From: Escherichia phage mEp043
DNA: 42,880 nucleotides
Direction: 5' to 3' (one strand)
Sequence record: PV340537
The notes under the pieces are model-generated. The model made no database searches. It worked only from the letters and a program-made list of their open reading frames with translations, and was not told the origin of the DNA. Below are positions 38,901-40,682 of the stretch, piece after piece; the stretch's first letter is position 1; every line of letters begins with the position of its first letter. The position numbers were made by a program, and so were the translations under genes.

Positions 38901-39706
38901 TGCTGAGCCTGCAGACGGACGTTAACGGCAACAAGGCATCCATAAACAGCCTGAATCAGACGTTCTCCGACTATCAGCAGGCAACGGCGCGCTCGCTGCT
39001 GAGCCTGCAGACGGACGTTAACGGCAACAAGGCATCCATAAACAGCCTGAATCAGACGTTCTCCGACTATCAGCAGGCAACGGCGCGCTCGCTGCTGAGC
39101 CTGCAGACGGACGTTAACGGCAACAAGGCATCCATAAACAGCCTGAATCAGACGTTCTCCGACTATCAGCAGGCAACGGCCACGCAGATAAACGGCATCA
39201 CGGCGACCGTGAACGGGCATACCTCAGCCATCACCACTAATGCTCAGGCGATAGCCAACGTTAATGGCGACCTCAGCGCGATGTATAACATCAAGGTTGG
39301 CGTAACCAGTAACGGGCAGTATTACGCTGCCGGGATGGGGATTGGGGTTCAGAATACACCCTCCGGCATGCAGTCACAGGTAATATTCCTGGCCGACCGA
39401 TTTGCTGTTACCACTGCTGCCGGAAACAGCGTGGCGTTACCATTTGTGATCCAGAATGGTCAGACGTTCATCAGGGCCAGCTTCATTCAGGACGGTACCA
39501 TTGAGAACGCCAAAATCGGTAACTATATCCAGTCGAATAACTATGTGGCTGGCTCTGCAGGCTGGAAACTTGATAAGGGGGGCACCTGGGAAAACTGCGG
39601 CAGCGACGGTCAGGGAGCAAGAAAATCCACCAATGTCACTGACAGTATCAGGGATTCAAATGGCGTGCTCCGCGTGCAAATCGGCAAACTTACAGGGGTG
39701 TTTTGA
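35930..39706 (+). CDS. J: Host specificity / central tail fibre protein J (1258 aa) with internal tandem repeats
   Basis: Size and position; fibronectin-like middle; C-terminal receptor-binding region differs from lambda. Confidence 0.9.
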   Translation: MGEKMQLLKQETILQGAKGGGGSSHTPVEQPDDLLSVAKLKMLIAVSEGEIQGDLTAQNIFLNDTPLANDSGEYNFSGVKWEFRKGTQDQTYIAGMPQVDNELAVGTTVTTTAPWTRQFTNLSLDAIRIKLSLPVQYLYKDNGDMVGTVTEYAIDLSTDGGAWKTVVNGKFDGKTKTEYQRDHRIDLPKSTSGWSVRVRRITADASGSNSKLVNAFKVFSYAEVIDSKLRYPLTALLYVEVDSSQFNGSAPKVTCKIKGKLIKVPDNYDPKTRTYSGSWSGGFKMAWSNNPAWIFYDLVLDEIYGMGTRVDASMVDKWALYSIAQYCDEMVSDGAGGTEPRFTCNVFIQSQEDAWQVLNDLAAVFRGITFWGNDQIYVQADVPQDDVDWVYNVSNVIDGLFTYAGGSYKNRYSSCLVSWSDPQNHYSDTVEGVYDSALVERYDVRQTSLTAIGCTSQSEAHRRGRWVLLSNAKDGTVSFGVGLDGYIPLPAEIIGVADPFRSGKENGGRISAVNGRQITLDREIDYAAKDRLVVNLPDGKAQTRTISAVSADKKTVTVATAFSQVPVAGAVWAIDSDNLAIQYFRVTSIAANDDSTGGFTITAVQHDPNKYRYIDDGVRVESPPITVTPISVLSAPKNIVVTESDHVSQGLTVASLDVSWDKVEGAIRYVAQWRKDNGDWINVPVTSAQGFSVQGIYSGSYDVRVRALNAQDTSSPWGYGETTYLSGKTGKPGTPLNFLATEDVVWHIDLTWKFPDGSGDTAYTEIQRATTADYANPELLVLVPYPAADYQHGPMPAGVRQWYRARLIDRIGNAGDWTDWIMGTSSIDVSEITNDILEDMKESETFKDLIENAVDSNEKIAGMANDIKQANDELEQQAKDIAKNAQDVGKVQTSVNELSSTVGNVSSSLSQLEQTVATADTALGQRIDNISVSMDGMTGGVKNSAIAIIQANLAQVATRKTLSASVAGNSANLDRIDEVIVNDREATARSLLSLQTDVNGNKASINSLNQTFSDYQQATARSLLSLQTDVNGNKASINSLNQTFSDYQQATARSLLSLQTDVNGNKASINSLNQTFSDYQQATATQINGITATVNGHTSAITTNAQAIANVNGDLSAMYNIKVGVTSNGQYYAAGMGIGVQNTPSGMQSQVIFLADRFAVTTAAGNSVALPFVIQNGQTFIRASFIQDGTIENAKIGNYIQSNNYVAGSAGWKLDKGGTWENCGSDGQGARKSTNVTDSIRDSNGVLRVQIGKLTGVF
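38885..39172 (+). repeat. Three perfect tandem copies of a 96-bp (32-aa) unit inside J
   Basis: Copies at 38885-38980, 38981-39076, 39077-39172, identical at nucleotide level; partial fourth copy begins 39173. Confidence 0.9.
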
Positions 39707-40008
39707 TGTCATGGGGTATACAAACATGGGATGCGTCGGGTAAACCCAACAACTACGGTATCAAGCCAGTTTCAGTTGTTGGGCGTATACAGCTGGCTGC
39801 CGGACAAAACTCCGGCAGTTGGTCTTTCGCGATGCCCTCAGGAATGAAGGTCGGCTTTGTGCTCTCACTTGATGAAGGTGGAAACAGCGTAGGGAGGCGC
39901 ATTGTCGCGTCAGGGAACACAATAACCGTAACCGCTGCCTCTTCTGTAGGCCTAGGTAATTACCCGGCCTCTAAGTGTGAGGTGATCGTTTTCATGGAGA
40001 AAGTATAG
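39706..40008 (+). CDS. Hypothetical protein (100 aa) coupled to J stop
   Basis: ATG overlaps J stop (TGATG); contains WDASGK motif shared with next ORF. Confidence 0.6.
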   Translation: MSWGIQTWDASGKPNNYGIKPVSVVGRIQLAAGQNSGSWSFAMPSGMKVGFVLSLDEGGNSVGRRIVASGNTITVTAASSVGLGNYPASKCEVIVFMEKV

Positions 40009-40682
40009 TGTCTGACTTTGGCGCAATGATATTAATGGAGAACGGCAATCCCTTTGTTACACCACAATCAACGCCTTTCTGCCTCTACGGAAAATACTCC
40101 TTCAATTCCTCAGCTAATGGCAGCTCTCAGCAGGTGGCGCAATATCTTTCGGTTCCTGACGATTATCCGGCAATGGTCTTCATAAAAACGACTAATACTG
40201 CGCAGCCGACCCCGGTCATTTCATATCGGATTGGAGGAAATGTCTATATTAGTGGCGTAAATCCCTATAACCAGGGCTTTACGCTGACAGCATATGTATT
40301 TGCAATTTTTCCGCAAACACTTCCCGCGTGGGGATTTGCTATCTGGGATGCCTCCGGGAAGCTTGTTCTGACGAACGAATCAAGGGTGCTTTCTGATCTG
40401 CAAACAGTGGGCACGCCAGGTGCAAGCGGCGGGATTAATATTGACCAGACGCTGAGCGGGTCATGGGCTGTTGCGCCTGCTCAGTTGGGTCAGACCATCA
40501 TTGTGAATAATTCAACCAAGCCTCCGACTATCTACACGATAAATGCTTATTCTTCATGCAGGTTTGACGGGGCCAATACGAGGATAAACGCAGGGGGGAC
40601 CTCCACTGGGGCAGGTTCACCTGGAGGGGGAACGAATACTGGCATTTCATTAACCGCCATAAATACAGCGGCCTATGATTGA
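40008..40682 (+). CDS. Hypothetical protein (224 aa; GTG 40008 or ATG 40026 start), Gly/Thr-rich C-terminus
   Basis: Start overlaps upstream stop; WDASGK motif; unknown function. Confidence 0.6.
   Translation: MSDFGAMILMENGNPFVTPQSTPFCLYGKYSFNSSANGSSQQVAQYLSVPDDYPAMVFIKTTNTAQPTPVISYRIGGNVYISGVNPYNQGFTLTAYVFAIFPQTLPAWGFAIWDASGKLVLTNESRVLSDLQTVGTPGASGGINIDQTLSGSWAVAPAQLGQTIIVNNSTKPPTIYTINAYSSCRFDGANTRINAGGTSTGAGSPGGGTNTGISLTAINTAAYD

Follow-up and report, generated by a model that had tools for sequence, protein, structure and literature searches.

A gene pair directly downstream of J in Escherichia phage mEp043 is a candidate FhuA-recognition module of the tail tip

Results

Two small genes are translationally coupled to J

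T1 and phi80 are classical FhuA (TonA) phages, and we know of no experiment that shows which of their proteins touches FhuA. Here we analyse two small open reading frames (ORFs), ORF A and ORF B, that follow the tail-tip gene J of the lambdoid Escherichia phage mEp043 and are candidates for this role. The window, i.e. the whole stretch of DNA analysed (record PV340537, 42,880 nucleotides), holds the genes in the order J, ORF A, ORF B, cor, side tail fibre gene and tfa (Table 1). This order matches the lambda lom/stf site, as an earlier note made from the DNA letters alone had recognised.

Both ORFs overlap the preceding stop codon by one base, again as the earlier note had it. The ATG of ORF A (39706) shares its first base with the TGA of J (39704–39706, TGATG), and the TAG of ORF A (40006–40008) shares its last base with a GTG at 40008 (TAGTG). 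Together with Shine-Dalgarno sites, these overlaps couple the translation of ORF A and ORF B to J. GenBank record JQ182733 starts ORF B at an ATG (window position 40026), which yields 218 amino acids (aa) and loses the overlap with ORF A. We prefer the GTG, because residues 2–6 of the longer product (x-D/E-F/Y-G-A) are kept across 48 homologues, G5 being invariant, and because a GGAG lies 8 nucleotides 5' of it; no Shine-Dalgarno-like sequence was seen before the ATG. The GTG is thus the better supported start, and the stop/start overlap is thereby restored.

Table 1. Features of the J to cor region (window positions; aa, amino acids; RBP, receptor-binding protein; pLDDT, predicted local distance difference test)
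Feature	Position	Strand	Description and basis
C-terminal tip of J	39560..39706	+	last ~50 residues, GWKLDKGG to the end; apparently exchangeable, co-varies with ORF A and ORF B; presumed docking site
ORF A	39706..40008	+	100 aa; phi80/N15 gp22 family (PHROG 557); small beta-sandwich; proposed tip adaptor or partner subunit
ORF A N-terminal hairpin motif WGIQTWDASGK	39712..39744	+	sequence and profile comparison
ORF B	40008..40682	+	224 aa; phi80 gp23 family (PHROG 425); two-domain beta protein; proposed FhuA-binding RBP
ORF B degenerate N-terminal hairpin copy FGAMILMENGNPF	40017..40055	+	like the N-terminus of DUF6453 RBPs, GAGILIDYNDGRP; within the low-confidence N-terminal 20 aa of the monomer model
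ORF B internal hairpin WGFAIWDASGK	40329..40361	+	opens the C-terminal domain; predicted strands 111–113 and 119–122 joined by the DASGK turn
ORF B Gly/Thr/Ser-rich variable tract near the C-terminus	40590..40652	+	composition; variable block of the family alignment; predicted structured (block pLDDT 87–97)
cor promoter -10 element	40782..40787	+	annotation of GenBank JQ182733 (record 19963–19968 mapped to the window)
cor, superinfection-exclusion lipoprotein inactivating FhuA	40794..41027	+	NCBIfam lamb_exclu_cor, E 9e-42; PHROG 1119; lipobox LTGC and hydrophobic N-terminus
rho-independent terminator closing the cor moron	41046..41077	+	strong; 41046–41067 plus T run

ORF A and ORF B belong to the gp22 and gp23 families of phi80

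The earlier note had listed the two ORFs as unknown. In fact, they are catalogued genes: region 39400–41100 is 100% identical to both mEp213 and mEp043, the two genes included, and both products are full-length members of known families. ORF A matched PHROG 557 over residues 1–99 of 100 (E 9.7e-36) and ORF B matched PHROG 425 over all of its residues, 1–224 of 224 (E 5.1e-78), at the lengths typical of these families (~100 and ~212–230 aa). We collected 157 homologues of ORF A, all 99–102 aa long, and 209 of ORF B. The annotated ones include genes 22 and 23 of phi80 and N15, HK022 p24 (plus its neighbour), and the T1 hypothetical proteins AZS32466 and AZS32465. Phi80 gp22 is 92% identical to ORF A and the T1 homologue 56%; the T1 homologue of ORF B is about 52% identical. 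The pairs of phi80, N15, HK022 and T1 resemble the window pair in length, in their order directly after J, in a hairpin motif (see below) and in their linkage to cor and FhuA. Nothing substantive separates the phi80 gp22/gp23 type from the window pair; only our preferred start of ORF B differs from the annotated one.

Pfam and NCBIfam scans of both ORFs found nothing significant. The sole near-match, Tailspike_C for ORF A, was sub-threshold (E 0.0085) and was rejected. A PDB sequence search with the ORF B family profile gave no match; the corresponding search for ORF A gave the C-domain of the Sf6 tailspike at E 0.15 only, and this candidate was rejected as well.

The two families differ in conservation, with a mean column identity of 78% for ORF A versus 60% for ORF B. 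The ORF B homologues are conserved in their N-terminus, in the hairpin region and in the C-terminal strand and variable in residues 28–92 and 147–215, a pattern that fits conserved assembly surfaces and variable receptor loops. The Gly/Thr-rich C-terminal tract that the earlier note had pointed out is real (8 G, 6 T and 3 S among the 26 residues ~191–216), yet it is predicted to be structured.

ORF B is predicted to share its fold with a proven receptor-binding protein

The AlphaFold2 model of ORF B was confident (pLDDT 89.6, predicted template modelling score 0.85) apart from the first ~20 residues. It is all-beta, with two domains, and its three-dimensional fold is shared with the DUF6453 RBPs (Oekolampad bas18_0025 and Rtp44; PDB 9rpt), i.e. 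with a proven protein-receptor binder (PMC12685063). The likeness extends to the locus: DUF6453 genes occupy the slot downstream of J with an exclusion lipoprotein alongside, and they are exchanged together with the J tip. Their products have, like ORF B, an N-terminal G-h-x-I-x-x-x-N/D-G-x-P hairpin, the two N-termini being alike, and an internal hairpin at a domain start. They differ in forming one chain of 321 aa instead of two chains of 100 and 224 aa, and the sequence similarity is not significant. The Oekolampad gene also lies on the opposite strand and lacks a gp22-like partner, and its product binds LptDE, not FhuA.

We compared the ORF B model with the BFVD database by Foldseek. It matched only uncharacterised phage proteins of 200–300 aa with the same two-domain fold (TM-scores 0.5–0.65). 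These matches came from Xanthomonas phage phiL7 (p23), Pectobacterium phages DU_PP_V and My1, and Pseudomonas, Proteus and Acinetobacter phages. The modelled fold may therefore represent a type of tip protein that is widespread beyond the enterobacterial siphophages.

Phage T5 follows the same logic with other parts. Its separate RBP pb5 ends the trimeric central fibre pb4 and binds FhuA, and the small lipoprotein Llp blocks FhuA from the periplasmic side (PMC9586334, PMC10038345); Cor has been reported to resemble Llp (PMC13164509). pb5 differs in its genome position and in having no small partner protein, and we did not find the pb5 fold in ORF B, so that the analogy is one of function between unrelated folds.

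ORF A and ORF B carry no membrane-targeting signals

Databases propagate the name "outer membrane protein" for PHROG 557 and, for PHROG 425, which is filed under moron/host takeover, the name "membrane associated protein". No sequence feature backs either name, and the names have already misled at least one published interpretation. Neither ORF A nor ORF B has a signal peptide, a check that the earlier note had proposed, and neither has a lipobox or a transmembrane segment (maximum 19-residue Kyte-Doolittle score, KD19, 1.14 and 1.15, compared with 2.02 and an LTGC lipobox for Cor). The earlier note was also right that the ORFs are not Lom-like. Lambda lom lies, like the window ORFs, between J and the side tail fibre genes, but Lom is a secreted Ail/Lom beta-barrel moron, whereas ORF A and ORF B have no hydrophobic N-terminus and no Ail_Lom Pfam match. 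The suggestion that the pair sits in a host-range accessory position was right in spirit; rather than being a lom-like moron, the two products more likely serve the tail tip as its primary receptor-recognition proteins.

A Cor/Llp-type role meets the same difficulty. In this reading the two products would associate with the membrane and assist Cor in superinfection exclusion, as the PHROG names suggest, as the adjacency to cor in FhuA phages might imply and as was assumed in a paper on the T1-like phage KanT1 (PMC13164509). We consider it very improbable. Besides lacking hydrophobic segments of any kind, the pair is translationally coupled to J, whereas cor is a classic moron with a promoter and a terminator of its own, located after the tail-tip genes and before the side tail fibre gene. 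The strand of cor also varies: it is that of the tail genes in mEp213 and the opposite one in T1, PaulFeyerabend (Bas15) and damhaus. The Klebsiella weberviruses examined have the pair without an adjacent cor. ORF A and ORF B are thus members of the tail operon and cor is a separate unit. Finally, the fold match of ORF B is a virion RBP.

The pair stays together behind J across phage groups

A tblastn search of 50,697 phage records gave 345 with ORF A and 352 with ORF B, and the taxon profiles of the two were the same. The carriers are lambdoid phages, Drexlerviridae, Dhillonvirus and an Aeromonas phage. We opened seven other loci, including those of T1, two Klebsiella weberviruses, Dhillonvirus PaulFeyerabend, Hanrivervirus damhaus and Aeromonas phage pAEv1818. 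The order J, ORF A-like gene, ORF B-like gene on one strand was found in all seven.

In pAEv1818 (OL964755), an unannotated ORF right behind the ORF A and ORF B homologues (L003:5551-5829, plus strand) is a clear Cor homologue (…LVSASITGCVGVLEKQEPICYGTALIAGQETSVPIYGVRKQ…). The full J-gp22-gp23-cor cassette thus exists in an Aeromonas phage too.

We also searched 1.84 billion representative proteins for an ORF A domain fused to a larger RBP and found none: the true matches were all stand-alone proteins of ~100 aa. Large proteins that matched ORF A in several stretches were generic Ig-like repeat proteins (Big_13, PKD, MBG, Kre9), and a single case in which ORF A seemed to be fused to J looks like a metagenomic read with a frameshift.

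The pair is exchanged together with the tip of J

We then compared carriage of the pair with receptor use. All four carriers in the BASEL collection (Bas03 JulesPiccard, Bas05 PeterMerian, Bas15 PaulFeyerabend and Bas17 KarlBarth) depend on FhuA (S5 table of PMC8594841), a check that covers these four carriers. T1, phi80, N15, HK022 and ES18 have been reported as FhuA phages with the cassette (PMC13164509). Every carrier whose receptor could be checked uses FhuA.

The J proteins of PaulFeyerabend (FhuA) and Oekolampad (Bas18, LptD) are 90–100% identical over ~1,080 residues and only 20–40% identical over the last ~65, with the breakpoint directly after a GW-x-x-K-x-G motif. Downstream of J, PaulFeyerabend has the ORF A/ORF B pair, whereas Oekolampad has the single 321-aa DUF6453 protein and a lipoprotein, both on the other strand. 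A second swap was found in Roth44, a Klebsiella Webervirus that FhuA mutations do not affect (PMC12629751) and that has neither an ORF A nor an ORF B homologue. Its J (PQ657807, L010:24873-28703) is 92–100% identical to FhuA-type Webervirus J up to the GW..K.G motif and continues past this breakpoint with an unrelated C-terminal domain of ~200 residues. To judge from these sequences, Roth44 is a natural replacement of the split RBP by an extension of J. Conversely, the J proteins of mEp213 and T1 are 12–50% identical over most of their length and about 60% identical over the last 100 residues. Because of the two swaps and the similarity of the mEp213 and T1 tips, the exchangeable unit comprises the J tip, ORF A and ORF B and, as a rule, cor. 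Modestly new is the exact site at which J changes over; the locus itself was already called a "bona fide RBP locus" for FhuA by the BASEL authors (PMC8594841) and in a 2026 preprint (10.64898/2026.04.02.716166), and the FhuA-linked locus downstream of J was also discussed in PMC13164509 and PMC12629751.

Co-variation of the J tip with receptor type could also mean that the tip itself binds FhuA, J being the host-specificity protein of the older literature, and that ORF A and ORF B are lectin-like decorations that aid adsorption by binding sugars of the lipopolysaccharide core or by stabilising the tip. This is improbable in our view. The FhuA-type tip extends only ~50 residues past the breakpoint, which is small for a receptor-binding domain, and J proteins that bind directly have long C-terminal extensions (~200 aa in Roth44; TolC-type J, PMC8594841). 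In the same vein, lambda J binds LamB via its own C-terminal domain, whereas the window J ends in a short tip, so that binding is apparently delegated. The structural homologue of ORF B is itself a protein-receptor binder, and published AlphaFold models put the ORF B homologue on FhuA. In these models of Webervirus Roth93, the interface score (ipTM) was 0.75 for FhuA-gp54 versus 0.45 for FhuA-gp53, gp53 and gp54 being the two genes missing from Roth44 (PMC12629751). By position, gp53 and gp54 would correspond to ORF A and ORF B, because gp50 of Roth44 and gp52 of Roth47 are J and the homologues come directly after J. An AlphaFold3 model likewise backs the FhuA-specific family as RBP (preprint 10.64898/2026.04.02.716166).

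A hairpin motif is common to both proteins

WDASGK occurs exactly twice in the six-frame translation of the window, once in each ORF (39727–39744 and 40344–40361). The earlier note had spotted this conserved motif but transcribed it slightly off, as W-x-I-WDASGK; the pattern common to both ORFs is W-G-x-x-x-W-D-A-S-G-K. Aligned by BLASTP, ORF A and ORF B gave E 6e-4 for the motif segment alone, and profile-profile comparison gave E 2e-5 to 4e-5. Four motif positions, G, W, D and G, vary hardly or not at all within either family (G4/W8/D9/G12 in ORF A, G109/W113/D114/G117 in ORF B), and the hairpin is kept in the T1, Klebsiella and Aeromonas homologues. These comparisons indicate that the similarity is more than chance. 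Four of the six WDASGK codons differ between the ORFs at the third base, and thus the motif is conserved at the protein level and does not reflect a recent DNA duplication.

The earlier note went further and suggested that the two ORFs are paralogues. The comparisons did not demonstrate this. We compared the whole proteins and split domains (ORF A, the N- and C-domains of ORF B, and the N, M and C parts of DUF6453) by hhalign: significance was confined to the 13–14-residue hairpin. All domain-level pairs gave pairwise E values of 0.01–0.5; ORF A matched the N-domain of ORF B weakly (profile-profile E 0.03), and no match of ORF A to the C-domain of ORF B was found by profile-profile comparison. 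The fold search that the note had proposed returned the same lectin-like beta-sandwich for both ORFs, a generic fold that does not demonstrate paralogy. A weak hhalign alignment places the ORF B hairpin on an internal segment of DUF6453 (GTGITMTNNQNQV). Full-length paralogy, and a mapping of the pair onto a "split DUF6453", were rejected as unproven: beyond the hairpin, the profile scores are weak.

In the models, the W-G-x3-W-D-x-x-G element is predicted to form a beta-hairpin that opens a beta-sandwich module, and it probably serves as a docking or interdomain element. Modestly new is its recognition as a recurrent domain-opening hairpin, found at the N-terminus of ORF A and at the domain boundary of ORF B, with degenerate copies at the N-terminal ends of ORF B and DUF6453.

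The hairpin bears on what ORF A does. ORF B could be the RBP and ORF A a non-structural assembly chaperone that helps ORF B to fold or to attach to the J tip and is no longer present in the mature virion. ORF A is small, always encoded with ORF B and the better conserved of the two; its N-terminal hairpin is a mimic of the one between the domains of ORF B and could take its place transiently; the modelled interface of its presumed homologue gp53 with FhuA is poor; and DUF6453-type loci need no such gene. ORF A, on the other hand, has an all-beta Ig/lectin-like fold of a kind also found in the RBP itself, unlike chaperones of the Tfa/gp38 type, and its isoelectric point (9.4 versus 4.85 for ORF B) suits a stable complex as well as a transient one. 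We regard the chaperone function as rather unlikely.

A wider view starts from the same element. Tentatively, the tip RBPs of small siphophages might consist of a single repeated unit, in which a lectin-like beta-sandwich follows an N-terminal beta-hairpin (G-h-x-h-W/x-D/N-x-x-G), and ORF A would be a free-standing copy of this unit; we give this view a low probability. The hairpin of ORF A would then dock on the J tip in the way in which ORF B uses its internal hairpin to dock its own domains. J tip, ORF A, ORF B and FhuA would be strung together as a daisy chain, and the DUF6453 proteins, 321 aa long, would represent a single-chain fusion (100 + 224 = 324 aa). If true, the FhuA- and LptD-specific RBP families, "unrelated" in the literature, would go back to a common origin and attach by a common mechanism, and module exchange would allow rational receptor swaps.

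Discussion

Taken together, family membership, fold similarity, synteny and co-occurrence, co-variation with the J tip and the lack of membrane-targeting signals lead us to favour, with reasonable but not high confidence, the reading that the gp22-gp23 pair completes the tip of J: ORF B would be the FhuA-binding RBP, ORF A its partner or adaptor and Cor the matching exclusion lipoprotein. FhuA binding by ORF B, incorporation into the virion and the adaptor role of ORF A are what we infer, the FhuA association and the AlphaFold complex models being taken from the literature.

According to this reading, ORF A and ORF B would be late tail genes translated in one run with J. Assembled on the short C-terminal tip of J, their products would make the distal end of the central tail fibre complete. 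ORF B would be a separate, non-covalently attached RBP whose variable loops recognise the outer-membrane transporter FhuA, much as the DUF6453 protein of Oekolampad plugs into LptD. ORF A, a small beta-sandwich, would most likely be an adaptor between the trimeric J tip and ORF B, or else a second subunit. Cor would block FhuA in lysogens, and the last ~50–65 residues of J, ORF A, ORF B and Cor would form one exchangeable "FhuA module".

Several points weigh against this assignment. In the literature we found no experiment that places either protein in the virion or on FhuA, the functional evidence being correlative or predicted, and the searchable literature yielded neither virion proteomics nor mapping of host-range mutants for these genes. 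The cryo-EM study of T1 left the distal fibre unresolved and so gives no direct view of the tip (PMC11945409). The 2026 paper on KanT1 proposes a link of these proteins to superinfection exclusion (PMC13164509). The link between ORF B and DUF6453, moreover, rests on predicted structure: by sequence, ORF B has no Pfam match to DUF6453 (PF20051) at E<=1 and an hhalign E of 0.046 with a probability of 1%, compared with E 2e-121 for the Oekolampad RBP against the same profile.

The cassette and its association with FhuA are already in the literature, and for the window it is an ordinary, catalogued part of a known phage. Modestly new is the fold-level link that the models suggest between RBPs of the FhuA and LptD types, which one preprint calls "unrelated"; no structural hits are given in the KanT1 paper. 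For the protein that contacts FhuA, the cassette is the leading candidate, and the link to the solved Oekolampad RBP-LptDE complex strengthens this candidacy. It also argues against the membrane-protein names of the databases and against the superinfection-exclusion suggestion. The module boundary in J, after GW-x-x-K-x-G and with the downstream genes included, could help in predicting which receptor a lambdoid or T1-like phage uses, or in re-targeting it.

Two minor observations were made along the way. Eight "Campylobacter phage" records (A136, A110b, A15b and others; MG065687, MG065688, MG065637 and others) carry coliphage-type gp22/gp23 homologues at 50–70% identity. They look like mislabelled or contaminating T1-like coliphages.

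J itself contains a perfect in-frame tandem repeat of 96 bp (38883-39180, plus strand; 3.1 copies; 32-aa unit ATARSLLSLQTDVNGNKASINSLNQTFSDYQQ). The deposited mEp213 and mEp043 records are all one unit short of the window (a 701-nucleotide query aligned to 605 nucleotides), so that no deposited record is identical to the window, and HK106 has two units fewer than the window. The length of the central fibre thus varies by repeat copy number.

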